From positions 2,250,001 to 2,282,000 of the forward strand of contig NC_014034.1 of NCBI RefSeq assembly GCF_000021865.1: DNA of 32,000 nt, in the 5' to 3' direction. Shown here piece after piece: positions 8,001 through 21,030 of the stretch. The DNA comes from Rhodobacter capsulatus SB 1003 (GTDB taxonomy: Bacteria > Pseudomonadota > Alphaproteobacteria > Rhodobacterales > Rhodobacteraceae). A model generated the notes under the pieces. The model was given only the letters and a program-made list of their open reading frames with translations, had not been told where the DNA came from and searched no databases. Made by a program: the position numbers and the translations under genes. Positions within the stretch are counted from its first letter, which is position 1. Each line of letters opens with the position of its first letter.

Positions 8001-8222
8001 TCATGTCCCGGCGACCAGGGCGCGCACGACAGCGGCAATTCGCTCGACCGAAGCACCGGGTTCCAACCGGACGATGACCGCCCCCATCACGATCTCGGGG
8101 CCGGAGTTGCTCCCCGGCTGCGGAACATCGTTCTGCGGTGCCACCATCAGCGCCGCGAATTCCTCAGGATCTTCGGGGGCGGGCAAAACCAGCCGCCCCT
8201 GCCGGGCAAGTGTGTGCCACGA
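8001..8222 (-). pseudogene. IS66 TnpA (Orf1), C-terminal fragment
   Basis: ...WHTLARQGRLVLPAPEDPEEFAALMVAP...IVMGAVIVRLEPGASVERIAAVVRALVAGT matches the usual TnpA C-terminus. The N-terminus was removed by the IS407-like end at 8223. Confidence 0.7.
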
Positions 8223-8248
8223 TGACCTGCCCCCCGGTCGTCCCTCAG

Positions 8249-8596
8249 TCATAACGAGAGTCCTTGGGGTTGATAGTGGTCGGTTTCGGGTTGGGCAAGC
8301 GCGCCGGGCGCGGAGCCCTCAGATTGCTCAAGCGCTCGGCGCGCTTCTGCCGGGGTCTGATTGCCCAGCGAGGAATGCGGCCTGATGTGGTTGTAGTCGT
8401 AGCGCCACAAGGCCAAGGTGCGCCGGGCATCGGCGAGGCTGTCGAAGATCTCCTCGTTGAGGCATTCGTCGCGTAGACTGCCGTTGAAGCTCTCGATGAA
8501 GCCGTTTTGCTGCGGCTTGCCGGGGTCGATGTAGTGCCACTCCACCTTGTTGACGTTCGCCCATTTCAGGATGGCCTTGCTGGTAAACTCGGTGCC
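8249..8596 (-). pseudogene. IS407-group OrfB, C-terminal part (split by the IS110 insertion)
   Basis: [78 protein letters not shown] (rve domain with the DDE glutamate context). Confidence 0.85.
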
Positions 8597-8734
8597 ATAG
8601 CATGTTGGTAATGACGCGCCGTTGAAGGTTATGGCCGTCTGCGCAGCCTCCAAAATTGCGCGAGCCAGGCGGCCATAACCAGGGCTCAGGTCTCTATGGT
8701 GGTTTTGCGAACCACACCACAGAGGAGACCGGCT

Positions 8735-10018
8735 ATGGCCAAGGTTGAGCATACTTCGGATGCCCGTGTTCTGGTAGGCATCGACATTTCCAAACACCGG
8801 CACGAGGTGCTGATTGCCGTCCCGGGCAAGACGCGGCGCCGCCGGATGACGGTGCTGAACACCGCCGAGGATTATCGCCGTCTGATCGCTGCTTTGCTTG
8901 ATTATGGCCTACCGGTCACCATCGGCTTCGAGGCGACGGGCAACTACCACCGGGCGCTGATGTTCGCCCTCGGGGCCGCGGGATTCGATCTGAAGCTCGT
9001 CTCTTCCGTCGCTCTCGCCCGCACGCGAGAAGCGTTGCACAACAGCTGGGACAAGAACGATCCCAAGGATGCGCAGGTCATCCTGCGGATGCTGGAGATC
9101 GGGGCAGTTCAAGTCTTTCACGACCCGCTGGTCGTCGGCACTTGCGACATCCAGGAACTGTCAAAGACCTACGAGATGGTCGCGCGGTCGAAGACAGAAC
9201 TGTGGCATCGTATCCTGACCCATTACCTGCCCCTGTATTTTCCCGAGGCGGACCGGTTCCATCGCAGTTCTCGTGGAGACTGGTTCTTGGCGTTACTTGA
9301 GGCCTTTCCATCTCCTTACATGATCACCGCCATGGACAAGGACGCCTTCATAGAGGCTGCCTGGCCGGTGATTGGTCGCCGCGTCGCCAAGGCGGCGCTA
9401 TTGGCGGATATCTACGAGACATCAAAGACTTCCGTGGGTTTGCCCGTCGCGCCAGACTCCGATGCAATCCGGATGTTCCGTCTCGTTTTGGCGCAGGGAC
9501 GCAGCCTTGTTCAGCAGCGCAACGCCATTGAGGACCGTGCGACAGAGCTGCTGGCCGACCATCCAGATTATCAACTGCTGCGCACGATACCCGGGATCGG
9601 GCCTGTCAATGCGCTGGCCGTTCTGGCCGAAGCCGGTGATCTGCGCCGCTTTCGCCATCACCGCCAGTTTCTGAAGTTCTGCGGCATGGACCTGGCGACG
9701 GTGCAATCCGGTGTGTTCCGCGGACGAAGCAAGATCTCGAAGTATGGCAACGCCCGCCTGCGTCGCACACTCTGGCTGGCCAGTCAGGCCGCCGTGCTAA
9801 AGCCCGCCAACAGCTTCCGCGACAAGTTCGAGCGATACATCGCGCAGGACCGGCACAACCCGGATCTTCGGCGCAAGGCCTATACTGCCATCGCCGCCAA
9901 GATGGCGCGCACCATTCACGCCGTGATCAAGTCCGGCGAACCCTATCGCCCCTTCTTCGAGGGGGCGAGCCCAGGCGGAAGGACCCCTCTCTGTAGAGCC
10001 GTGGAGGCAGCTTCCTGA
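8735..10018 (+). CDS. IS110-family DEDD transposase (recombinase)
   Basis: MAKVEH...[27 protein letters not shown] and [12 protein letters not shown] form the DEDD/RuvC-like N-terminal domain. [22 protein letters not shown]...[20 protein letters not shown] is the C-terminal Tnp domain. The ATG at 8735 is preferred over the upstream start at 8696. Confidence 0.9.
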
Positions 10019-10272
10019 CCTCGTAGATAATGTTCGCCATCGTCGGGGAAACGATCCCCCGGATCGTTCCCTGATCCTCCTCTGTCCGCTTGGGATTTCG
10101 GATCTCGTCTTGAGGACGGTGAGGGCGGCAATCAGGCCGACCCTGTATTTGCTATGGAAGAGACCACTTCTTGACGGCGGAGCCCGCCTGGGCAACTATT
10201 CAACAGGTATCCGGTCGCTCGGATGCCCCGTGATCTGATGCCTCAAACGGCAAATCGTTCCCAACATAGGAC
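10019..10272 (+). ncRNA. Candidate IS110/IS1111-type guide (bridge / seek) RNA region in the 3' noncoding end
   Basis: The call rests on position only. A 254-nt structured noncoding segment lies downstream of the transposase, as in the IS1111 subgroup. It contains TGCTATGG, which matches the reverse complement of the left-end junction (catGCTATGGcacc). It also contains a family C hairpin at 10040-10083. Confidence 0.3.
10040..10083 (+). repeat. Hairpin element, family C
   Basis: TCGTCGGG-GAAACGATCC-CCC-GGATCGTTCC-CTGATCCTCCTC. Both flanks are shared with the reverse complement of 5700-5745. The stems differ but stay complementary. Confidence 0.65.
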
Positions 10273-10770
10273 GTTGTCAGAAACGATGCAGGCGGGTTTT
10301 CCATAGATCCGGACCAAGGCGTCCAATTCGCGTGCGACCCGTGCGCCGGAGATGCTGGTGTCGGCAATCAGGGCGAGGTTTTCGCGGCAGCAGTCGTCGT
10401 TCACGGCGAGGATGCGGAACTTTCGGCAGGCCCCGAACGTGTCGGACATCGAGCCATGGGAACGCCACCGGTCCGAGTGACCATGGCGAGGGTCCAGCGA
10501 CCCGCGCTGGTTCGGCCGCAGCGGCACCGGCATTGGTGTGCGGCTGCCACGTGCCCGTTTGCGAGCACGACGGCGTCGCACCGACAGGCCTTCTTCCCGG
10601 TAAATCCGGTAGAGCCCTCCGCCCTACAAACGATCCCCCGGATCGTTTGCTTGACGGGCTACGATTTCGTTCATGATCATGCCCTTGCGCTCGAGCAGGA
10701 TGCCGACGCGCCGATAGCCGAAGCGACGGCGCTTCTCGACGATCTCGTGCATCGCCTCACGGATTTCCGG
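10273..10770 (-). pseudogene. IS407-group OrfB, N-terminal/middle part, lacking its first ~55 codons and broken by a hairpin insertion
   Basis: PEIREAMHEIVEKRRRFGYRRVGILLERKGMIMN / LYRIYREEGLSVRRRRARKRARGSRTPMPVPLRPNQR.SLD...SDTFGACRKFRILAVNDDCCRENLALIADTSISGARVARELDALVRIYGKPACIVSDN. Confidence 0.85.
10615..10668. repeat. Hairpin insertion related to family C (same stem-loop core, different flanks)
   Basis: It carries the perfect 10-bp stem CAAACGATCC-CCC-GGATCGTTTG (10627-10649). It replaces about 3 codons between GMIMN and LYRIYREEG and introduces a TAG. It shares AACGATCCCCCGGATCGTT with 10050-10068. Confidence 0.65.
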
Positions 10771-10811
10771 CCTCGCCATTGGGCTTGAACCAATGGCGCC
10801 ACAATGGCTCG
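10771..10811 (-). repeat. Hairpin mini-insertion, family A (CCATTGG/CCAATGG subfamily)
   Basis: The reverse complement is CGA-GCCATTG-TGG-CGCCATTGGTTCAAG-CC-CAATGGC-GAGG. It lies just after ...LVADVMLD of OrfA, at the same site as the copy at 12481-12521. Confidence 0.8.
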
Positions 10812-11083
10812 ATCCAGCATCACATCCGCCACCAGGCGCTTCAGCTTCGCGTTCTCGGCCTCGAGCTGCTTGAGCCGATTGGCGTCCGAAAGGTCCATCC
10901 CGCCATACTTGGCCTTCAGCTTGTAGAACGTCGCAGGGCTCAAACCGTGCTTACGGCAAAGCTCGGAGGTCGGCAAACCGGCCTGCTGCTCTTTGATCAT
11001 CCCGATAATCTGTTCGTCGGGGCTTACGCGGCCCCATCAGGGGCCACGGTCCCCTCCTCATCGGTGAAACGGCTCTTTCGCAT
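10812..11083 (-). pseudogene. IS407-group OrfA (copy 1), interrupted after codon 7 and at its 3' end
   Basis: MRKSRFT / DEQIIGMIKEQQAGLPTSELCRKHGLSPATFYKLKAKYGGMDLSDANRLKQLEAENAKLKRLVADVMLD. Confidence 0.85.
11017..11060 (+). repeat. Hairpin mini-insertion, family B
   Basis: TCGGGGCTTACGCGGCCCCATCAGGGGCCACGGTCCCCTCCTCA. TCGG recurs at 11061-11064. Removing the insert restores ttcaccgacgaacag (FTDEQ). The copy in IS407 copy 2 lacks this insert. Confidence 0.85.
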
Positions 11084-11150
11084 TCGTCTGCTCCTTAAGG
11101 TTGGGCAGACTCTACATCAGATTGAGGGAACTTCCGGGAGGCAGGTCACA

Positions 11151-11596
11151 TCGAAAAGGAAATCCGCGGCCGTGACCCGGCCACGCGCGTGAAAATCCGG
11201 CAGAGGTTCTCCAGGCCGATCGTCGAGGCCCTGCGGCCTTGGCTCGAGGGCTGCCTGCAGCAGCTTTCCTCGACGAACGAACTGACGCGGCACATCCGAT
11301 ACGGTCTGAAACGTTGGGCGGGGCTGACCCGGTTCCTGGACGACGGTCGGCTCGAAATGGACACCAACGGCGTCGAAAACGCGATCCGTCCGATTCCGCT
11401 GACGAGGAAAAACGCGCTCTTTGCGGGCTCCGATGACGGGGCGAAAACCTGGGCCCGCATCGCCTCGCTGATCGGCACCTGCCGCCTCAATGGCATCAAC
11501 CCCGAGGCCTATATCGCCGCCACGCTCCGCAAGATCCTAGACCAGCACATGCAAAGCGATATCGCCGCGCTGATGCCCTGGAACTTCCGAGAATAG
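11151..11596 (+). pseudogene. IS66 TnpC, C-terminal fragment
   Basis: The sequence is as described for the copy B fragment. The 5' part is missing because the IS407 copy 1 end abuts at 11150. Confidence 0.8.
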
Positions 11597-11634
11597 TCAA
11601 GCCGCTAGGCAAAGGGTGATGAGCGGGCGCTTAC
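11151..11634 (+). mobile_element. IS66-family right-end fragment (tnpC 3' part plus terminal repeat), copy B
   Basis: The TnpC C-terminus is IEKEIRGRDPATRVKIRQRFSRPIVEALRPWLE...TNGVENAIRPIPLTRKNALFAGSDDGAKTWARIASLIGTCRLNGINPEAYI. It ends with the IS66-type terminus ...GGGCGCTTAC at 11634. Confidence 0.8.
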
Positions 11635-11813
11635 GAACAGATACACCGCGCCATTGTAGGGATCGTGGCCGAGCACGTTCTGCACGACCAGCGCGAGCCC
11701 CGCGTGTTCCTCGGGCTTACGCGGCCCCACCGGGGCCACGGTCCCTCGTCATTGCGGAAGTCCACCGGACGCGTCGCCAGATAGGCGCGGGTGACCCCGC
11801 CCGGCAGGATCAC
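11635..11813 (-). pseudogene. IS66 TnpB, N-terminal fragment with a family B insertion
   Basis: MILPGGVTRAYLATRPVDFRK / EHAGLALVVQNVLGHDPYNGAVYLFVS, then truncated. Confidence 0.75.
11711..11751 (+). repeat. Hairpin mini-insertion, family B
   Basis: TCGGGCTTACGCGGCCCCACCGGGGCCACGGTCCCTCGTCA. Removing exactly this segment restores gacttccgcaag|gaacacgcg (DFRKEHA). No target duplication is visible. Confidence 0.85.
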
Positions 11814-12271
11814 GACGATGTCTCCCGCAGCGCCGCAACCACCCGGCCAAGATGCGCCGCGTCGAAGCCGGTCGGCACAAGGATCCGCACCCCGACAATC
11901 TCCAGCTGCAAGCTGGTCTCGGGCCGATCACCCGGTACGGCGCCCCCGCTCACCACGATCGGCACAAGCCCGAGGGCATCATCCTCCGGCATCGGCAAAA
12001 GCCCCTCGCGCGCAGCCCGACGCCAGGCATGCAATTGCGGCGCCGAAACCCCATGACGCCGCGCCACGTCGGCCACCGTCACCCCGTCCCGAAAGGTCTC
12101 GAGCACCATTGCCGCCTTCACATGTTCGGGCCAGCGACGGCGACCGGTCGGCCCCGTCACGATGTCGATACGCCCGGCGTATCCAGGATCATCACTGTGA
12201 GAACTTACGTAAGTTTGTATGTCGCTATCCATCGACGCCTCCGTTGTTACGGGCGTCATCTCGGATGACAT
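11810..12271 (-). CDS. IS66 TnpA (Orf1)
   Basis: RRRWPEHVKAAMVLETFRDGVTVADVARRHGVSAPQLHAWRRAAREGLL...LVPIVV...LQLEIVGVRILVPTGFDAAHLGRVVAALR matches the canonical Orf1 layout. The stop overlaps the tnpB start. Confidence 0.7.
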   Translation of the reverse strand: MSSEMTPVTTEASMDSDIQTYVSSHSDDPGYAGRIDIVTGPTGRRRWPEHVKAAMVLETFRDGVTVADVARRHGVSAPQLHAWRRAAREGLLPMPEDDALGLVPIVVSGGAVPGDRPETSLQLEIVGVRILVPTGFDAAHLGRVVAALRETSS

Positions 12272-12335
12272 CGAGCCTCAAGCAACGAGGGCGATGGCCG
12301 GGCGCTTACGGATCTCCGGATTGTCGGGCGGGTGT

Positions 12336-12749
12336 TCACGCCGCACCGTCTTCGGATCGACACCGATCAGGACGCAGGCCCGGCGTTGAGAGATCGGATG
12401 CCCCTTCATCGCCCGCAGCACCGCGTCCCGCCGTTGCATCGGCGTCGTCAGGGCTTTCCCAAGAGATCCTTCGGCACGACCCTCGCCATTGGGCTTGAAC
12501 CAATGGCGCCACACTGGCTCGATCCAGCATCACATCCGCCACCAGGCGCTTCAGCTTGGCGTTCTCTTCCTCAAACTGCGTCAGCTGCTTGGCATCGGAC
12601 AAATCCATCCCACCATACTTGGCCTTCAGCTTGTAGAAGGTCGCGGGGCTGAGCCCATGCTTCCGGCAAAGCTCGGAAGTCGGCAAACCGGCCTCCTGCT
12701 CTTTGATCATCCCGATGATCTGCGCCTCGGTGAACCGTCTTTTCCTCAT
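12336..12749 (-). pseudogene. IS407-group OrfA (copy 2) with a family A insertion before the frameshift window; the orfB N-terminus follows in another frame
   Basis: MRKRRFTEAQIIGMIKEQEAGLPTSELCRKHGLSPATFYKLKAKYGGMDLSDAKQLTQFEEENAKLKRLVADVMLD / insertion / VVPKDLLGK. The OrfB frame then reads ALTTPMQRRDAVLRAMKGHPISQRRACVLIGVDPKTVRREHPPDNPEI. Confidence 0.8.
12481..12521 (-). repeat. Hairpin mini-insertion, family A (CCATTGG/CCAATGG subfamily)
   Basis: It differs from 10771-10811 at 1 of 41 positions and occupies the same position in OrfA. Confidence 0.8.
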
Positions 12750-12915
12750 TTAGTCTGCTCCTTCTCAGGTTGGGCAGACGCTACATCACGGCGAGGGAAC
12801 TTCCGGGGGGCAGGTCACAAATTTTAGCAAAATCTCGACTCAGTAAAGGAACAAAGGACGCGGGTTATTTTTAAAAATTTTGACCCACCTAAATCACAAA
12901 AGCTGCCAGCCTAAT

Positions 12916-15216
12916 TTACAAAGCTTTAACCTTTGCCATCAAAGATGAAGTGGAAGTGTTTGGACCATTGATGATCGCAAGCGCATCGGCGTTTTTGGTT
13001 CTATTTGGTATAAGAATTGTGCGGCGATCAATATAAACATCCTGAGCGTATCCTTCTGCTTTTATTACAACGACAATCGGCTCGACATGTTTTGTCAAAC
13101 TCGCAGGAAGCCCCCGACGCAAGGCGCTGTACTGTCTTCCAGTTCCACTTTGTATGAAAAGTTTTCGCAATATAGTAAGCAAGACTTTAACTTCGTCTTT
13201 GAGCGGCGAGCGCATCACGGCATCATTCGTAGCGGTAAATGTCGCGTACTGCTCAACCGATGATGTGCCGGTCAAAATACCAGCAGGAACATCGCTCTGG
13301 GATGCCGCCCCCTCAATCTTTCCGATAAGACAGTCGTGGAACCGAGGGAAATTGCTTGCATCTTTTGCCGCACTCGATCGACCGAGCTCTATGGTGTCAA
13401 AAATACACCTCGCGAAGGATATCTTTGAGAAATCCAACTCGGGATCCACAGTTACAGTTCCAAAGTTCGCATCTTGGATAGTTAACGGTGCCCCGCTATA
13501 GCTAAGTTGGTGATCCATTAAGATCGAGATTAGGTCTGCGCATGTCGTCGCCAACTCAGAACGGTCACTTGCTTTAAGCAACGCAATCGAGACCCTGGAA
13601 ATAGCATCATCTGTGCGCGACGCAACCATCTCCCTCCCGAGTTCGCGCAAAGCCACCGACACATTATCCAAAGATGATTTCATAACGAAAGGAGCTTCGA
13701 TGTAACGGCTTAGATCACCACTCGCTGCTGCATCAGCAAAATCAGCATCAATAAACTCGCGGGCTCCGGGACGTCCAGGAACTGACCCTAGCCCAGGCAA
13801 ACGACAAGTTAAAAGATTGGCGGGTTCATCCGTATCACGTCCAAAAACCTTCCTGAATACGCTTCGCAAATCGCTATCTTGCAGACCACGTCCATCTGGA
13901 GACTTGCGAGCACGTGTCGCCAAACCTTCAATGAAAAGACGGAGATCACTAGCTTCAAAGCCTACCCCCCATACTTGGCTAACTTCGCGAGCGCATACTC
14001 GATGAAGCATCTGCTCCCAGCCGCTACTGGGTGAAAGCGCTAACGCCTCGTCCTCTCCCTTTAGTAATCCGGCATTCGCTAGGTAGCCTAACAAGAGTGG
14101 GCGAGTAGGAAGCCAACCCGGCAACATAGTTCCTTTGGCCTTAAGAAATTTTTCAATATCACTATCTGTAAAGCCGGCGAGATCAAATACTTGCGAGGCT
14201 GAATTGTAACCAAGTGCACTCTTGGCTTCTTCACGTCCATCAAAGTAGCTTTCTCGTCCGGCAATGATAATAGGAGCCTCAGAAGGGGTTTGCTCTATAA
14301 ACCTCCGAACGAGTTCAACTGCAAAGCGGCGCGCTTGTCGAAGCGTGAGAGCTGAAGATGCAAACTGAGGTGGCGTTAACTCGTCGAACCCATCGAGGAA
14401 CAAAGTAACGAAGCCTGCACGCCAAGCGGATATCAAGCTGTGGGGTTCAGGGAAGCCGACTTTCTCTGCATGTCGGTAAAGTGCCTCATCAGGTTGAGTT
14501 TGCGCGATATGCTCCCGAAGATTCAAGTAAATTGGGCATCTGATAATATCTCCAGACGCAAATCTATCGCGAACTCTAAAATATATATCGCGCAGCGTCA
14601 TGCTCTTTCCGGAACCGTAGTCTCCATAAATCACATACTGCCCACCACTTTCTATTCTTGCAGCTAGGTCCGATGCACGAATGGATTCTCCAGTATTTTC
14701 ACGACTTAGCGCTGTAGGAATGTACTCAGAGGGTGGAACCCTGTGATCAGACTCGTTCGCTGGATTTCTAACGCTGCCGAACGAGTGATCGCCACGGATT
14801 CGAATGTAATGTCTGGCATCAAACAACCTTGAAAATAATGTCGTGAATGATATTATCTCTTTTGGGCAACCAGCCTTCGCTGACTTTACATGAGCAGCTT
14901 GATCTGCGGTGGGGTCTTCCGCGGTCACAAGCATGATACGGAAATTATATTCAGAAAAATTATTTGAACCTCGGAGTTTTTTGACGAGATCGATACTTTT
15001 GCTCAAGTCGTACTCAGTCTTCGATAGCTTTCTAGACTGCGTCGCCTCCACTACGATAAGTTCGGTTCCGGTGTCGATTATTTCATCACGTTCTCGCCCG
15101 TCGAGCTTGATGGAGCCAGTTGAATCGCTATGCCTATAAAGCTGTCGTGTGACCTGTCGGACCGACGCCTCAAATTCAGTGGAATTCTGTGTATCACATA
15201 CAAAATCAGGCATCAC
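12916..15216 (-). CDS. NACHT/STAND-type P-loop NTPase with an N-terminal nuclease-like module and a large C-terminal region (candidate bacterial NLR-like defence protein)
   Basis: - 766 aa.
- Walker A is GDYGSGKS.
- The NACHT-style Walker B is TLFLDGFDELT.
- The N-terminal ~130 aa has LDGRERDEIID...ELIVVEATQSRK, possibly a PD-(D/E)xK-like nuclease module.
- A GGAGG Shine-Dalgarno sequence precedes the ATGATG start.
- The gene is strongly AT-rich compared with all flanking DNA. Confidence 0.8.
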   Translation of the reverse strand: MMPDFVCDTQNSTEFEASVRQVTRQLYRHSDSTGSIKLDGRERDEIIDTGTELIVVEATQSRKLSKTEYDLSKSIDLVKKLRGSNNFSEYNFRIMLVTAEDPTADQAAHVKSAKAGCPKEIISFTTLFSRLFDARHYIRIRGDHSFGSVRNPANESDHRVPPSEYIPTALSRENTGESIRASDLAARIESGGQYVIYGDYGSGKSMTLRDIYFRVRDRFASGDIIRCPIYLNLREHIAQTQPDEALYRHAEKVGFPEPHSLISAWRAGFVTLFLDGFDELTPPQFASSALTLRQARRFAVELVRRFIEQTPSEAPIIIAGRESYFDGREEAKSALGYNSASQVFDLAGFTDSDIEKFLKAKGTMLPGWLPTRPLLLGYLANAGLLKGEDEALALSPSSGWEQMLHRVCAREVSQVWGVGFEASDLRLFIEGLATRARKSPDGRGLQDSDLRSVFRKVFGRDTDEPANLLTCRLPGLGSVPGRPGAREFIDADFADAAASGDLSRYIEAPFVMKSSLDNVSVALRELGREMVASRTDDAISRVSIALLKASDRSELATTCADLISILMDHQLSYSGAPLTIQDANFGTVTVDPELDFSKISFARCIFDTIELGRSSAAKDASNFPRFHDCLIGKIEGAASQSDVPAGILTGTSSVEQYATFTATNDAVMRSPLKDEVKVLLTILRKLFIQSGTGRQYSALRRGLPASLTKHVEPIVVVIKAEGYAQDVYIDRRTILIPNRTKNADALAIINGPNTSTSSLMAKVKAL

Positions 15217-15721
15217 ACCTCCAAACTCTGCTGTTCAGCATGCATGATCTTCAAGTTGAACGCAATGAGTCTGTACTTCTATTCAAATTATTATAAACCC
15301 CACATAGAGGATTAAGTGGCGCTTTGTGTGTAACTTTTCAAGCGCAATGAAACACACTAATTAACCAATTACTACTCCGCGCAGATAGGATGATCTTGCA
15401 AACGTTCGGCGTAACGCAAGCCTCGGGGACCTTGCCCTGTACCTGCTGCTGATCTCTCCGGTCCGCTCTGACTAGAGGCCGCCAGTTCCAACGACAGCTC
15501 CGTCCCGCATCAGCGACATTCGCCCAAGATTTTGCTGCGCTGAATGCTAGCCGACCGCTGTGAGGAAGCCGCACCGCCGCATAAACCCATTCTCGACCAG
15601 TCGGCAAGGGCCGACGACCTGCGTTTCATCATGATGGGCCAGCTGACCAAGCTGACGCCGACGCCACAAACGGCCTGATGCTCTCATGCTGGATTGTCGG
15701 CAGTAAGCTCTGCGTCGAGAT

Positions 15722-17368
15722 TCAGGGCGTACAGAAATCCGGCAAGGCCCGCTCAGGCAACATCACCCCGGACAGGGACAGGGCAATGATCGCAGTCGGC
15801 CCCGCAGTGTTGTCGCCCTCCGGCTTCGTCGGTAAGCGGATTTCCACCCTGGGCGCAAGGCCGGATCCCTCTGCCAAGGTCGAGAAGACATTGATCGATG
15901 CCGAGCCGGTGAAAGTCCGATTCCGATGCTTCCAGCCGCGATCCTGGACAAGTTCCAGAGCGACGCGCACCGAGGGTGCAATCCGGGTGGCCTCTCCGGC
16001 ACCGGCGTGCAGCACATATCCGCCCGCGGTGTTCGCCGCGGCCCAGTCGAAGACGATCTCCTCCGTTCCCAGCGTCAGTTTACCCCAAGCTTCCTGCTCT
16101 TCGCGCAGCCCCGGGGGAACCTCCACCGTCACGGTAATGCTCCCCACGACCTGGGGACGCAGTTGGTCCGGATCGGCGGGGATCGCCTGTTCCATCCCTT
16201 CGACCCATGGGGCCAGCAGGTGGTCCCGAGCTTGCGCCCGCAACCCTTGCTCCAATGCCGCAACCTGTGCCGGAGACCGTGCCTGAAGGTTGTCCCGCAT
16301 CCCGGTGTAGTGCACCAGCAGCGACCCGGCGGTCTTGCAGGCGAGTTGCCTGTCAGCATCCGCCAATTCGGACAGCGCGACCTCCCCCACCGCGACCTTC
16401 GCCGCGCTGCCACGCTCCTTCCCCCGCTCGGCCAGCATCGCTTCCAGCACCTTACGGGTCTCTGCCTTGTGCTCATCGATCAGGGCGCGCAGTTCCTTCT
16501 CGAAATCGTCGCGCTTGAGGTAATCCTCTAGCTTGATCATGGCGACATCCGTGCCGACCCAAGCGATCCCCGCCCCGATCAGGCCGCAGGCCGCCGCCCC
16601 AGGACCGGTCCAGGAACAGACGGCCGCACCGGTCCCGCCGCCGACCAACGTGGCCGCCCATTTCGTCCCGGTCTTGGCCGCCACTTTCGCCGCCAGCTTG
16701 ACGCCCAGTTTCGTGGCGAAAACCTTGGTCATGCCCTTCAGCGCAACCGCTTCCAGCGCCACCATGCCCCCTGTCTTCGTGATCCGACTCTTGCTGTCCT
16801 TCAGCGCCCCGGCGACCACCGGCCCGAGTGCCTCGGCTCCACCCGGCAGTCCTGCCATCGCCCTGTCCACCACGCCTAAGTATCTTTGATCGAATTCCCG
16901 GCCCAGATCCGCCGCAACCGAGTCCAACCGCTTGTCCAAGCCGGCGAACATGTACTTGTCCAGACCGGAGGATATCTCCCCGATTGCCGCCGCGCCCAGT
17001 TCCAGCCATTCGCCCTTCAGCGAATAGTGGAAATCCATATAGGCCGGGATCCCCGCATAGACCGGCGCATAGGCCTTATCCAGCATCGGGTCGATCTCGG
17101 CCCGGACCTTGGCTGCTTCCTTCCCCGCCATGGCAAACCAGTGTTCCACCTGCGTCGCCTTGGCTTCGGCTTCGGCGGCGGTCTGGCTGGCGGCCTCGCC
17201 TTCACCCTCGGCGCGCTGCTTTCCCAGTTGCAAGCGGGCCGCGAAGTGCAGTGCCAGCGTGATCATCAGAAGGACCGCGATGGTTCCCCAGAACCAGTGC
17301 GACGCCTTCAGCCGCTTCGCGGCCGGCCTGCCGGAAGCTTGAGCTGGGTCTTTCGGGTTCGTGTCCAT
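15722..17368 (-). CDS. Hypothetical membrane protein (N-terminal TM, coiled-coil, Lys/Ala-rich amphipathic segment, Gly-zipper TM, beta-rich C-terminal domain)
   Basis: 548-aa ORF with host-like GC. Predicted TM segments are WFWGTIAVLLMITLALHFAA and TLVGGGTGAAVCSWTGPGAAACGLIGAGIAWVG. Its start ATG overlaps the stop of the upstream gene (ATGA at 17368). I recognise no family. Confidence 0.6.
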   Translation of the reverse strand: MDTNPKDPAQASGRPAAKRLKASHWFWGTIAVLLMITLALHFAARLQLGKQRAEGEGEAASQTAAEAEAKATQVEHWFAMAGKEAAKVRAEIDPMLDKAYAPVYAGIPAYMDFHYSLKGEWLELGAAAIGEISSGLDKYMFAGLDKRLDSVAADLGREFDQRYLGVVDRAMAGLPGGAEALGPVVAGALKDSKSRITKTGGMVALEAVALKGMTKVFATKLGVKLAAKVAAKTGTKWAATLVGGGTGAAVCSWTGPGAAACGLIGAGIAWVGTDVAMIKLEDYLKRDDFEKELRALIDEHKAETRKVLEAMLAERGKERGSAAKVAVGEVALSELADADRQLACKTAGSLLVHYTGMRDNLQARSPAQVAALEQGLRAQARDHLLAPWVEGMEQAIPADPDQLRPQVVGSITVTVEVPPGLREEQEAWGKLTLGTEEIVFDWAAANTAGGYVLHAGAGEATRIAPSVRVALELVQDRGWKHRNRTFTGSASINVFSTLAEGSGLAPRVEIRLPTKPEGDNTAGPTAIIALSLSGVMLPERALPDFCTP

Positions 17369-18129
17369 TATGCCTCTCTATCGTAATGCGTGTCTATGAA
17401 ATTGGTGACAACCACGCCCGCCCGCGCGACAAGGAACCCGAACAATGCCGCATCGAGGTTGAACACCAGAGCAACCAGCGGATAGTCGCGCAACTGCACC
17501 ACTAGCCACAGCTTCGCCGCCTTGACCGCATAGCAGAAGGCCAGGACCTCGGCGATCCAGCCCGGCCTTTCCGGAAGCGCATCAAACCCCGACTGCACCG
17601 CCTCGGAAAACGTGGCATCGAGCATCGAAAGGGGAACGCTCGTCGTCCGCCAGGAAACAAGGAACAGGACGATGGCGAAAGGGAGACCGACCAGCCAGGC
17701 ACTGGACCCCAGGGTAAGTATCCGGTCGAACGGCGGCATGAAATGGCCACCGACGCCCCCCCTTGCCCAGAGAAACAGCCAGGCGCTCGAGTACACCAGC
17801 CCGAGCAGAATGGCTGCCTCGGCCGCCGACATGTTCAACACCTGCCAAGCCAGGAAGGGAACCAGCGCCCCCACCAGCAAGGTCGATGAGAAGAAGGCCA
17901 GGATCCGCCCGGACAACCAGCGCGACAGCCAGGACTCTGGCTTCAGCACGATCGCGCGTTCGGCCAGCCAGTGATCGATTACCAGCGACCAGTTCCCCAA
18001 GAAGATCATTGCGGCCAGTAGCAGAAGCCAAAGGACTGCCAGGTCCGAAAAGGCGTAACTTAAGCGCCAGAGGTAAAGCAGAAGCCCCGAAAGGAGAGAT
18101 GTCGCCAAGGAGATGGAAAGGTTTCTCAT
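17368..18129 (-). CDS. Hypothetical polytopic inner-membrane protein (about 6-7 TM segments)
   Basis: 253 aa, very hydrophobic (LLSGLLLYLW, LAVLWLLLLAAMIFL, ILAFFSSTLLVGALVPFLAW, ...). It is translationally coupled to the 548-aa ORF. I recognise no family. Confidence 0.6.
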   Translation of the reverse strand: MRNLSISLATSLLSGLLLYLWRLSYAFSDLAVLWLLLLAAMIFLGNWSLVIDHWLAERAIVLKPESWLSRWLSGRILAFFSSTLLVGALVPFLAWQVLNMSAAEAAILLGLVYSSAWLFLWARGGVGGHFMPPFDRILTLGSSAWLVGLPFAIVLFLVSWRTTSVPLSMLDATFSEAVQSGFDALPERPGWIAEVLAFCYAVKAAKLWLVVQLRDYPLVALVFNLDAALFGFLVARAGVVVTNFIDTHYDREA

Positions 18130-18676: not shown

Positions 18677-19147
18677 TCAGGCCGCGTCGTAGTGGGCAAA
18701 GATCCGGGTTTGCCCGTCCGCCGTGATCAGATGCACGTCATAGGCCTCGCGTTGATCCTCGGGGCCCATGCCGGGGGCGCCAAGCGGCATGCCCGGCACC
18801 GCCAGCCCCAGCGCCGCGGGGCGCTCGGCCAGCAGGCGACGGATGTCGGCGGGGGGAACGTGGCCCTCGATCACATAGCCCTCGACCCGGGCGGTGTGAC
18901 ACGAGCGCATCGGCTCGGGGATGCCGCTTTGCCCCTTGAGCGCCTGCAGCGCGTCATAGTCGATCACCTGTGTCGTCACGGCAAAGCCGTCGGCGCGCAG
19001 AATATCGATCCAGGCCTCGCAGCAGCCGCAATCGGGGTCCTTGACGACAGTGATCGCCACTGGCGCGGCGGCGCGCAGCGGTGCGCTGGCAAGGCACCCG
19101 GCGACAAGGGCCAGAACGGTGCGGCGGGACAGGTCATGCTTGGTCAT
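18677..19147 (-). CDS. DUF411 / CopG-like periplasmic metal-binding protein
   Basis: 156 aa with a signal peptide, a DPDCGCCEAW cysteine motif, and AVPGMPLGAPGM. It lies directly downstream of the multicopper oxidase. Confidence 0.8.
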   Translation of the reverse strand: MTKHDLSRRTVLALVAGCLASAPLRAAAPVAITVVKDPDCGCCEAWIDILRADGFAVTTQVIDYDALQALKGQSGIPEPMRSCHTARVEGYVIEGHVPPADIRRLLAERPAALGLAVPGMPLGAPGMGPEDQREAYDVHLITADGQTRIFAHYDAA

Positions 19148-19160
19148 ATTCGTTTCCCCC

Positions 19161-20636
19161 TCAGGCGCTGACGACGAATTCGGTCATCATGCCGGTCGCA
19201 AGATGGCCCATGTGGTGACAATGCAGCATCCAGGGCGCGGCTTCCCCCGCATCCAGCGCCACCGTCACGCTGCCCATCGGCGGCACCGAAACGGTGTCGC
19301 GCAGCGCCCCCGCGATGCGGGTGCCGTTCACCGCGATCACCTGAAAGACATGGCCGTGCAGATGCATCGGATGCGCCATCATCGACATGTTGTGAAACAT
19401 CATCTCGACCCGCTCGCCCGATTTCGCCCCGATCGGACGGCGGTTATCCCAGCTGCGCCCGTCGATCGTCCATTGATAGGGCAGCATCGACCCCGTCAGC
19501 ATCACCATCGGCTGCGCCGTGGCAGGCCGGGGGGCGAGCGGCGTGACGGCGCGCAGCGCCATCTCCTGCGCCATGTCCCCCGAGACTGCCGGATGCGGCT
19601 CGTCAGAGACATCCGCGAGTTTCGGCACCGCGGCCCCTTTCGGCGCCAGGATCAGCCCGGTACGCTCGCGCGTGCCTTCACGCAGCGCAAGGATCGGCAC
19701 GGCAGTGCCGTCTTCGACCAAGTCGATCTCGATGTCGAGCCGCTGGCCGGGCGAGATCGCAAACCGCCTGCCGGGCAGCGGCACCACCGGGTTGCCATCG
19801 ACCGCGACAAGCCGTGCCGCAGCCGCGCCGGTGTCGATCCAGAAGGCCGTCATCGACGCCCCGTCGATCACCCGCAGCCGCAACCGGCCGCCGTTTTCGA
19901 CCCTCACCACCTCGGGATCGGCGAGCGTCCGGTCGTTCGCCAGATAGGCGTCGAATTCGTAATCGTTCAGATCCATCGAGAGGCCGCCCTCCATCGCGGC
20001 GTGCATCTCGGCCATGCCGGGAAGCGACATCATGTCCGCCATGCCGTCCATGCCCTGCATGGGCGTGGCGGAATGGTCCATGGCGCCGTGATCCATCGCC
20101 GTGCCGCCACTGACCGTCTCGAGCACTTCCTGCGGGGTCGCAAAGGCGAAATCATGCAAGAGCATCACCACCTCCTGCCGGTCCTCGGCCAGCTCTTCGG
20201 GGCGGCGCACGATCAGGGGCGCGGCCAGAAGACCGATTTCCTGATCGGGGATGTGGCTGTGCATCCAGAACGTGCCCGGGCGGGCCTCGAAATCGAAGCT
20301 GCGGGTCTGGCCCGGTTTCAGCATCGGGTTGGTGTTCGGCACGCCATCCTGGGCATTGGGCGGGATCTGGCCGTGCCAATGCACGATGGTCTCGATGTCG
20401 AGGGCATTCGTCAGATCGGTGCGGAAGCGCTGGCCCGGATCAAGGCGCAGGCCGGACCGGCCCTGCGCATCCAAAAGGCCCATCACCGTGGCGGCGCGGC
20501 CATTCACCTCGATCACCCGCGTCGTGGCGGTGAGCGAAAAGCTGTCGGCCGCCGCCCGGGCGCGGGCAGGCACAAGGGGGAGCGCGGCAAAGGCCGCAGA
20601 AGCGGCCAGAAAGCCGCGGCGGGAAAGCTGAGTCAT
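19161..20636 (-). CDS. copA: Multicopper oxidase (CopA/PcoA-type copper resistance oxidase), Tat-exported
   Basis: The Tat motif is MTQLSRRGFLAASAAF. The copper ligand motifs are HWHG, WMHSH, HPMHLHGH and HCHHMGHLATGMM. A Met/His-rich segment is also present. The start was chosen at 20636, preceded by a GGAG Shine-Dalgarno sequence. Confidence 0.9.
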   Translation of the reverse strand: MTQLSRRGFLAASAAFAALPLVPARARAAADSFSLTATTRVIEVNGRAATVMGLLDAQGRSGLRLDPGQRFRTDLTNALDIETIVHWHGQIPPNAQDGVPNTNPMLKPGQTRSFDFEARPGTFWMHSHIPDQEIGLLAAPLIVRRPEELAEDRQEVVMLLHDFAFATPQEVLETVSGGTAMDHGAMDHSATPMQGMDGMADMMSLPGMAEMHAAMEGGLSMDLNDYEFDAYLANDRTLADPEVVRVENGGRLRLRVIDGASMTAFWIDTGAAAARLVAVDGNPVVPLPGRRFAISPGQRLDIEIDLVEDGTAVPILALREGTRERTGLILAPKGAAVPKLADVSDEPHPAVSGDMAQEMALRAVTPLAPRPATAQPMVMLTGSMLPYQWTIDGRSWDNRRPIGAKSGERVEMMFHNMSMMAHPMHLHGHVFQVIAVNGTRIAGALRDTVSVPPMGSVTVALDAGEAAPWMLHCHHMGHLATGMMTEFVVSA

Positions 20637-20673
20637 GATGATCTCCGGTTCAAGAATGGGAACGTGGCGAAGA

Positions 20674-21030
20674 TCAGAGGCGGGGCGGCGGCCCCTCCGG
20701 TTCGGGGGAAAGCAGCGCCAGCCGCAACGGAACCGCAGGCGGAACAAGGCGCGAGATGCGCTCTGCCCTTGCGGCGGGCTGCATCGGTTCGGGCGTCAGC
20801 GAGGCGCCCAGACAATGCTGCAGGCAGCCTTCCGGCGCGAAGGTGGTGGTCTTGGGCGACGGTTTCGCATCGGGGACCATCGCATGATGGCCCGCGCCCC
20901 TGCCCTGCGCGCAATCGGCGCCGGGATGCGGACAGGCCTCCGGCGCGGCGACCACGGGCGCAACCGCGCCAAGCGCCGCCAGAAAGACGACGATCAGGCT
21001 GAGGCGAAGCAGGGCGCACAGAATCCGCAT
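20674..21030 (-). CDS. Hypothetical exported Cys/His-containing protein upstream of copA
   Basis: It has a signal-like N-terminus (MRILCALLRLSLIVVFLAALGAVAPVVAA) followed by CPHPGADC...GHHAM...CLQHC. The start is uncertain and no clear Shine-Dalgarno sequence is present. Confidence 0.45.
   Translation of the reverse strand: MRILCALLRLSLIVVFLAALGAVAPVVAAPEACPHPGADCAQGRGAGHHAMVPDAKPSPKTTTFAPEGCLQHCLGASLTPEPMQPAARAERISRLVPPAVPLRLALLSPEPEGPPPRL

Follow-up and report, generated by a model that had tools for sequence, protein, structure and literature searches.

The analysed window, 32,000 nt of the Rhodobacter capsulatus SB 1003 chromosome (NC_014034.1, positions 2,250,001 to 2,282,000), carries on its minus strand a gene of low GC content, the product of which combines an N-terminal domain of restriction-endonuclease fold, a central NACHT nucleoside triphosphatase (NTPase) module and a C-terminal region. 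The first-pass annotation of the window had proposed here a candidate antiphage sensor resembling the NOD-like receptors (NLRs) of animals and built of an effector, an NTPase and a sensor, and each element of this layout survived testing. The gene comprises the following features, given with the evidence on which they were assigned.

12916..15213, minus strand: complete gene, 765 codons and a stop, encoding the restriction-endonuclease-fold, NACHT and C-terminal parts (open reading frame, homologue alignment)
~12,820..15,400, no strand: low-GC one-gene cassette of ~2.6 kb (composition profiles; 100-nt windows of 36-56% GC inside DNA of 60-70% GC)
15218..15222, minus strand: Shine-Dalgarno sequence GGAGG (read from the sequence)
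14764..15186, minus strand: restriction-endonuclease-fold (PD-(D/E)xK-like) domain, residues 10-150, putative effector (domain model, Foldseek, invariant residues)
14239..14643, minus strand: NACHT nucleotide-binding domain, residues 191-325 (Pfam, invariant residues, Foldseek)
14602-14625, minus strand: Walker A motif, G197-S204, GDYGSGKS (alignment)
14380-14394, minus strand: Walker B motif, D274-E278, within LFLDGFDE (alignment)
13744..14238, minus strand: helical and winged-helix parts of the NACHT module, residues 326-490 (model secondary structure, structural alignments to NLRs, conservation of 41%)
13234..13743, minus strand: variable region of a helical bundle and a beta-rich block, residues 491-660, candidate ligand-sensing surface (low conservation)
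12919..13233, minus strand: conserved C-terminal alpha/beta domain, residues 661-765, helix-helix-helix-hairpin-helix, winged-helix-like (model secondary structure, invariant columns)

In the open reading frame list of the window, the minus-strand frame 12916..15216 starts with a GTG and encodes 766 residues, the length adopted in the first-pass annotation. The homologues have 765 residues and N-termini of the form MP(D/E)F and align with the protein end to end. Because of this length, and because the GGAGG sequence precedes the ATG at 15213 by 4 nt and the GTG at 15216 by 1 nt, the sequence indicates that the true start is almost certainly the ATG at 15213 and the product a protein of 765 residues. 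The GC content of the gene is 48.1%, against 64.2% in the flanks, in agreement with the foreign composition described earlier; the figure of about 43% quoted there holds for some of the 100-nt windows and not for the gene as a whole. The low-GC block consists of the gene, ~190 bp of AT-rich DNA upstream and ~100 bp downstream. No inverted repeats flanking the cassette were found, and its interpretation as a transposon was rejected on this ground. The promoter and terminator scans near the gene gave nothing beyond the shuffled expectation and nothing upstream on the right strand, and no structured RNA was found near it in an Rfam scan. An identical protein in the same context was present in several complete R. 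capsulatus chromosomes, therefore the locus is stable in the species, and the gene has remained intact there with none of its key residues lost.

Domain architecture of the protein

The central module, spanning approximately residues 170-490, is a true NACHT of the fold composed of a nucleotide-binding domain (NBD), a helical domain (HD1) and a winged-helix domain (WHD). The Pfam NACHT family (PF05729) matched residues 195-358 with 30.8 bits against the curated cut-off of 26.7, and its precomputed annotation was present on most of the homologues. Conservation was assessed in an alignment of 49 homologues ranging from 100% down to 31% identity, in which G200, G202, K203, S204, D274, G275, D277, E278, G319 and R320 were invariant, the last two lying behind the strand that follows the Walker B motif, with R320 as a putative sensor-1 residue. 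The key NTPase residues were also kept in the phage and plasmid copies described below. The GDYGSGKS P-loop and the NACHT-style Walker B LFLDGFDE, on which the first reading had rested, are thus present with their key residues unchanged throughout the alignment. Residues 326-490 contained an invariant P365-x-W-x-P-x-x-P372-LLL motif and an RLPGLG hairpin, and W399, R409, E410, R436, R471, R485 and F487 were the invariant residues of the stretch 370-490.

An AlphaFold model of the full-length protein, calculated from the 49-sequence alignment, had a pLDDT of 84.1 and a pTM of 0.71. The best 34 PDB matches of this model in Foldseek were all NOD2, NLRP, NLRC4 or NAIP proteins (E 5e-12 to 2e-6), led by NOD2 (5.5e-12) with NLRP3, NLRC4 and NAIP5 behind it, all within 5e-12 to 1e-8, and the structural alignments to NLRs spanned 650-710 columns. 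ORC/Cdc6, the plant NLR NRC3 and MalT ranked behind the animal NLRs (2e-6 to 8e-6). The structure search recommended in the first pass thus returned an NLR NACHT for the whole protein and the restriction-endonuclease fold for its N-terminus, and the assignment to the NACHT/STAND NTPases was upheld by both the Pfam score and the animal NLRs among the best structural matches.

A separate model of the N-terminal domain reached a pLDDT of 85.9 and displayed the topology a-b-b-b-b-a-b-a-b, with helix 1 at residues 11-25, strands at 35-58, helix 2 at 63-82 and a strand at 90-97, followed by helix 3 and a further strand. The alpha-beta-beta-beta-alpha-beta core of the restriction-endonuclease fold was present in this model. 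The top PDB match in Foldseek was the small subunit of R.BspD6I (7.6e-5) and nearly all of the top matches were nucleases of the same fold; Nt.BspD6I, MspJI, Card1, Can2, Cdn1, McrC, AF1548, XisH and the Avs4 nuclease domain were also retrieved, of which Card1, Can2, McrC and Avs4 are defence effectors. At the level of the structural model, the restriction-endonuclease fold of the domain can be regarded as established. Sequence comparisons were far less informative, as the domain gave no Pfam match at E<=10 except for a spurious AAA_lid_13 at 0.1 and nothing significant in a profile search of PDB sequences, and the sequence searches of Pfam, PDB, NCBIfam and PHROGs with the N-terminal and C-terminal regions were all empty. 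Within the restriction-endonuclease fold, the head forms a sequence family that had not been recognised before.

Six positions of this domain, E15, E41, D43, E56, T58 and K72, were invariant in the 49 homologues and likewise in the phage and plasmid copies. In the model, helix 1 carries E15, the start of strand 2 carries D43 and strand 3 carries E56; these places match those of the catalytic residues in the fold, and an acidic metal-binding triad E15/D43/E56 is plausible. Two lysines, the invariant K72 (49/49) and the near-invariant K65 (47/49), lie on the helix after strand 3. The first pass had suspected a PD-(D/E)xK effector at this end of the protein, which gained support from the matches to restriction-endonuclease-fold nucleases and from the five invariant acidic or lysine positions. 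Of the D...E..K-type pattern read there, D43 and E56 proved invariant, but the lysine, K62 of 'SRK', was kept in 22 of the 49 sequences.

The NACHT module is followed by ~275 residues (491-765), in which a helical bundle (491-570), a beta-rich block (571-660) and a final domain (661-765) were distinguished. The earlier estimate of about 400 uncharacterised C-terminal residues was too high, since ~165 of them still belong to the NACHT module as its helical and winged-helix parts. Pfam and PDB searches yielded no fold for residues 491-765, and no tetratricopeptide (TPR) or other repeat family of Pfam was matched. The mean pairwise identity among 32 divergent members was 44% for the nuclease, 48% for the NBD, 41% for HD1/WHD, 27% for the helical bundle, 25% for the beta-rich block and 39% for the C-terminal end, with residues 491-660 being the least conserved part of the protein apart from a short inter-domain linker. 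A rapidly evolving recognition surface attached to a conserved effector and switch would be expected to give such an identity profile. The proposal that the C-terminus acts as the sensor accords with this location of the most variable part of the protein behind the NTPase. In the final domain, K684, Q688, R693 and G701 were invariant in the 49 as well as in 58 sequences and were kept in the phage and plasmid copies.

Non-significant PDB profile matches to EfsQnr and AlbG (E 0.18-7) provided a lead to a pentapeptide-repeat identity of residues 571-660. This identity was ruled out, as hhalign against an annotated pentapeptide protein aligned 8 columns, located outside the block, and no Pfam pentapeptide family was matched by any of the 58 C-termini. 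On the Erwinia persicina plasmid NZ_CP146502.1 (L091), an annotated pentapeptide-repeat gene (7610-8185) is located ~800 nt upstream of the NACHT homologue. Judging by the sequences, which showed no relation of this gene to the NACHT C-terminus, the vicinity is probably a coincidence.

Distribution and genomic contexts of the family

At a threshold of E<=1e-3, an exhaustive search of 1.84 billion representative proteins yielded 809 relatives; at E<=1e-30 there were 398 clusters (50% identity). With few exceptions, the relatives were 750-770 residues long and matched end to end, which makes the architecture a fixed one. In species-representative genomes, 113 relatives were detected, the best 80 of which were all full length, 30-36% identical and spread over more than 10 phyla. 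Alpha-, Beta-, Gamma- and Deltaproteobacteria, Acidobacteriota, Chloroflexi, Planctomycetota, Verrucomicrobiota, Actinomycetota, Bacteroidota, Spirochaetes, Nitrospira and others were represented among these 80. Such a patchy spread is typical of horizontally moving genes. In 74 of 75 loci, the GC content of the gene was below that of its flanks (mean difference -11.5 points, Wilcoxon p=6e-14), thus the composition signal belongs to the whole family. Clustering of 817 open reading frames located within 6 kb of the gene at ~80 loci revealed no conserved partner, the largest shared neighbour family being present in 4 of the ~80 loci. The genes upstream of the R. capsulatus copy never accompany the family elsewhere, and the gene thus forms a unit on its own.

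Relatives closest to the R. capsulatus protein (73-83% identity) were mostly encoded on contigs of only 2.5-3.7 kb, approximately the size of the cassette; a contig of 2961 nt (L010) was binned to a Planctomycetales metagenome-assembled genome at 4.7x coverage. The contig sizes suggest that assembly tends to stop where the cassette does, at repeats or at the shift in composition, and the taxonomic labels of such bins should therefore be treated with caution.

Several copies were located on mobile elements. A full-length copy, CDS0030 (E 2e-101), is encoded by Haddon, a cultured temperate phage of Pseudomonas (host PA14), where it is annotated as 'hypothetical protein'. It belongs to the accessory region of the phage, with the excisionase/putative-integrase end on one side and the lysis genes on the other. 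A member of 32% identity that is frequent in gut metagenomes separates the lysis from the tail-tube genes of a prophage, and a 37-kb Erwinia plasmid carries a copy beside an integrase and a Phd/RelE toxin-antitoxin pair. The phage, plasmid and prophage copies all keep the putative catalytic and the NTPase residues.

In the gut metagenome prophage (L006-L009), the gene, a P0112 family member at 8001-10241, had 30.5% GC inside a prophage of 65.3% GC, and this 35-point gap was the most extreme in the family. P0112 was indexed in 151 blocks, being very common, and many members of its cluster were truncated fragments. Phages carry full-length structural analogues besides the Haddon copy, as a phage NLR-like protein from BFVD, A0A8S5V3T3 (Siphoviridae sp. 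cteDy1, 822 aa), matched the whole model over 733 columns (E 1.9e-14).

Other copies were associated with type I restriction-modification (R-M) genes. The gene order was hsdM-NACHT-hsdS-hsdR in L058, hsdM-NACHT-hsdS in L061 and hsdM-hsdS-hsdR-NACHT, with a 33-nt gap, in L029, while in L052 and L042 HsdR or an N6-methylase was encoded within 3 kb. The interior of a type I R-M operon is a classic site for defence genes. The R-M linkage in 5 of ~75 loci, confronted with a null of 0.0153 for the chance that a random gene has a defence system within 5 kb (Lee et al.), corresponded to p ~0.006. Taken together, the mobile and R-M contexts point to defence.

Surroundings of the gene in the window

The R. 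capsulatus copy lies in an island, for which the following features were assigned.

3547..3621, plus strand: tRNA-Met (ARAGORN, Rfam)
3649..4746, minus strand: tyrosine integrase adjoining the tRNA-Met (Phage_integrase, 6.8e-11)
12481..12819, minus strand: IS3-type left end with the inverted repeat TGTGACCTGCC... starting at 12819 and an HTH_Tnp_1 orfA, abutting the 3' side of the cassette (sequence, copy comparison)

The tRNA-Met and the integrase (3547..4746) form the near border of the island, at a distance of ~8 kb from the NACHT gene. The far border is undefined, since a second copy of the tRNA-Met 3' end was not found within the window. Fragments of IS66, IS110 and IS3-type insertion sequences (ISs) occupy positions 6479-12819, with the IS3-type terminal repeat ending at 12819, 97 bp beyond the NACHT stop codon. 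The integrase-marked island of the first-pass annotation was recovered with its tRNA-Met, integrase and IS fragments; the gene is, however, not hemmed in by the IS debris, which is confined to its 3' side. Between the integrase and the cassette, the decayed insertion sequences form a nest, in which the IS66 fragments are split by an IS110 insertion and the IS3-family left end with orfA occurs in two partial copies (10771-11150 and 12481-12819), 88-89% identical and 1.7 kb apart.

Directly upstream of the NACHT gene and on the same strand, two overlapping genes of host-like GC (15722-18129) encode a 548-aa protein with an N-terminal transmembrane segment and a 253-aa multi-pass membrane protein, the start of one and the stop of the other sharing position 17368. 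Neither protein had a Pfam or PHROGs match, and the pair was found in R. capsulatus loci only and never with the NACHT family elsewhere. Just past these two genes lies a copper-resistance pair coding for a DUF411 protein and a multicopper oxidase (18677-20747, minus strand); no att repeat that would place the pair inside or outside the island was found. A full-length cobalamin riboswitch at 24440-24656 on the plus strand (Rfam RF00174, 123.7 bits, E 7e-31) presumably controls the downstream plus-strand gene and is unrelated to the NACHT gene.

Proposed function and relation to known systems

With the domain identities, conserved residues, single-gene organisation and mobile and defence-type contexts described above, the protein is probably a stand-alone, single-gene NLR-like antiphage nuclease. 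As such, the family is an addition to the bacterial NACHT/STAND antiphage proteins with nuclease effectors and not a new principle. A defence phenotype, nuclease activity, oligomerisation and a trigger would be expected by analogy with the behaviour of bNACHT25/32 and of the Avs proteins. In the resting state, the protein would be a monomer with a bound nucleotide and with the N-terminal restriction-endonuclease-fold domain held inactive. Upon infection, the C-terminal region, in which the variable residues 491-660 are backed by the winged-helix-like end, would recognise a phage-derived or infection-induced cue and release the NACHT switch (K203, D274/D277/E278, R320). NTP-dependent oligomerisation of the NACHT modules would then bring the nuclease heads together, which could cut phage and host DNA via a metal site of E15, D43 and E56 with K72 or K65, and phage replication would stop, with the probable loss of the infected cell. 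The gene itself would move horizontally as a one-gene cassette, residing in R. capsulatus within the tRNA-Met/integrase island.

Several observations weigh against the reading as an antiphage nuclease. The position of the lysine in the (D/E)xK motif is occupied by the invariant T58 (E56-A-T58), and catalysis would need a variant active site with a relocated lysine, predicted from the alignment to be K72 or K65. Relocated lysines are known in the PD-(D/E)xK superfamily. No invariant histidine comparable to H443 of NLRC4, the winged-helix residue by which animal NLRs contact ADP, was found in residues 370-490 of the 49 sequences. Most of the immediate neighbours across the loci are housekeeping genes, and the defence-island signal is real but modest. 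The identical locus in several R. capsulatus chromosomes shows no sign of rapid turnover within the species. The PADLOC check advised in the first pass yielded no named defence family, as PADLOC-DB v2 contained no full-length match and gave only the weak, P-loop-level mad8 (4e-5 over residues 169-218) and PDC-S60 (0.078); nor was the protein matched in NCBIfam or PHROGs. A literature search found no paper on the family and no experiment on any of its members.

As the main alternative, the protein could act as an NTP-dependent restriction-type enzyme which senses foreign, perhaps modified or phage-specific, DNA via its winged-helix-like C-terminal domain, relays the binding to the nuclease through the NACHT module and needs neither a protein trigger nor suicide of the cell. 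The similarity of the nuclease head, nearest in fold to R.BspD6I, MspJI and McrC, the invariant basic or polar residues K684, Q688 and R693 of the C-terminal domain and the repeated embedding of the gene in type I R-M operons are all in line with such a function, which is nevertheless considered unlikely. The characterised STAND/NACHT NTPases are oligomerisation switches and not DNA translocases (Kibby et al., Lee et al.), the winged-helix assignment comes from secondary structure only, with no PDB or Pfam match, and the variable residues 491-660 are more like a protein-recognition surface under diversifying pressure.

A non-defence role, as a STAND regulator of the MalT/AfsR kind or a housekeeping nucleic-acid enzyme in which the restriction-endonuclease fold serves as a binding module, seems highly improbable. 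It would suit the prevalence of housekeeping neighbours, the stability of the locus in R. capsulatus and the missing ExK lysine, and non-defence STAND clades are interspersed with defence ones (Lee et al.). Against it, four acidic residues and one lysine in the core of the nuclease do not vary across more than 10 phyla, the gene has neither a conserved partner nor a regulon, the distribution is patchy with the gene systematically AT-richer than its host, copies occur in a temperate phage, a prophage, a plasmid and R-M operons, and MalT and ORC are much weaker structural matches than the NLRs. The smallest chance is given to a gene serving mainly the mobile elements, by superinfection exclusion, competition between elements or as an addiction-type toxin, with the R. 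capsulatus copy as a remnant. Its copies in phage Haddon, the gut prophage and the Erwinia plasmid, the decayed integrase/IS island around the window copy and a cassette GC up to 35 points off that of the carrier (L006) speak for this possibility, whereas many copies sit among ordinary chromosomal genes with no mobile element nearby and the copy in R. capsulatus is intact and has lost none of its key residues. Since superinfection exclusion by a prophage is itself antiphage defence, this alternative is largely a sub-case of the antiphage explanation.

Bacterial NACHT proteins are prokaryotic relatives of the animal inflammasome receptors, of which few subfamilies have been tested and triggers are available for very few. 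The family described here numbers at least 398 clusters at 50% identity, is compact (one gene, 765 aa), occurs in more than 10 phyla as well as in phages and plasmids, and is invisible to current defence-finding tools. If the antiphage nuclease reading is true, a common system would be added to the defence catalogues, and a small, tractable NLR-type switch would become available for structural work, which may reveal how a short non-repeat sensor recognises infection. The copy in temperate phage Haddon of P. aeruginosa PA14 makes the sensor question directly testable, and R. capsulatus, a genetic model organism which also makes gene-transfer agents, offers a practical entry point. More tentatively, and with much more doubt than confidence, the family may represent a distinct, very widespread class of compact NLR-like receptors missed by the systematic STAND surveys. 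Whereas the Avs families sense large structural proteins of phages, the small non-repeat sensor of this class may detect another kind of cue, such as a feature of nucleic acids, a small protein of the phage or a change in the host state. In the largest STAND survey, sensors shorter than 400 residues were left out of the structural clustering and effectors were detected by CDD profiles (Lee et al.). The family would have been hidden there because its ~275-residue sensor is below this cut-off and its nuclease head matches no Pfam profile.

Among the known systems, bNACHT25/32 of E. coli (clade 6 of Kibby et al.; WP_001702659.1), nearest in layout of those tested, are similarly encoded by a single gene of ~750 codons and combine a restriction endonuclease, a NACHT and a short non-repeat C-terminus. 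In bNACHT25 (752 aa) these parts occupy residues 2-178, 185-558 and 575-747 (NCH1), respectively (Kibby et al.), in comparison with 10-150, 170-490 and 491-765 here. Both proteins defend E. coli against DNA and RNA phages and the function is lost in the nuclease mutant D48A (Kibby et al.). Orthology was rejected, as only the NTPase core aligns remotely and the nucleases do not: BLASTP against bNACHT25 detected the P-loop only (E 0.024), hhalign the NTPase core only (probability 84-90%, ~18% identity), and the nuclease domains gave a probability of 0.8% and no alignment. The bNACHT25 nuclease has an Mrr-like D...(I)CK motif, whereas the family has D43...E56-A-T58 with K72 on the next helix, and its C-terminus is annotated as the all-helical NCH1, whereas here helical, beta-rich and winged-helix-like parts follow each other. 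The dependence of bNACHT25 on DnaJ cannot be assumed for the family.

The comparison by profile alignment covered nine tested bNACHT proteins, seven of which aligned equally remotely (probability 80-95%, E 1e-5 to 1e-8), while bNACHT27 and bNACHT30 barely aligned (probability ~22%). Marginally the best NTPase profile matches were obtained for clade 14 (bNACHT01/02/11/12/23), though these too were remote (E ~1e-8, 85-250 columns). The clade 14 proteins are short, have a small non-repeat C-terminus and a Walker B, LLLDGFDEI, nearly identical to that of the family, but are without a recognisable effector domain, in contrast to the N-terminal nuclease fold found here. In the listed members of clade 2 of Kibby et al. 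(REase/Mrr/SIR2 with NACHT), to which the family may or may not belong, NACHT starts at residue 235-289 versus ~170 here. The family motifs NLR[ED]H, GRERD and FGS[VI]R were absent from all tested bNACHT sequences in the tables of Kibby et al., and the family accessions and motifs were absent from the supplement of Kibby et al. and from the part of the Lee et al. seed list that was compared.

Avs/AVAST proteins (e.g., Avs4, PDB 8dgf) likewise join an N-terminal restriction-endonuclease-type nuclease, a STAND NTPase and a C-terminal sensor in one polypeptide, and in them trigger-induced oligomerisation activates the nuclease (Lee et al.). Their sensors have at least 400 residues and are mostly TPR-like, in proteins of typically 1,000-2,000 residues, whereas the post-NTPase region here is shorter and not TPR. 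Unlike in Avs, the NTPase is of the NACHT type by both Pfam and fold, and no PADLOC Avs model was matched.

The copies in L058, L061 and L029 resemble PrrC-type genes in context only, as these, too, are inserted in or immediately behind hsdM-hsdS-hsdR. The R-M complex regulates PrrC, an anticodon nuclease of ABC-ATPase-like type, whereas most family members occur without any R-M system. With the animal NLRs NOD2, NLRP3 and NLRC4/NAIP5 the family shares the NACHT motifs, including the Walker B D-G-x-D-E, at an identity of 9-15%, but in place of leucine-rich repeats and a CARD/PYD adaptor it carries a putatively enzymatic, nuclease-fold head.

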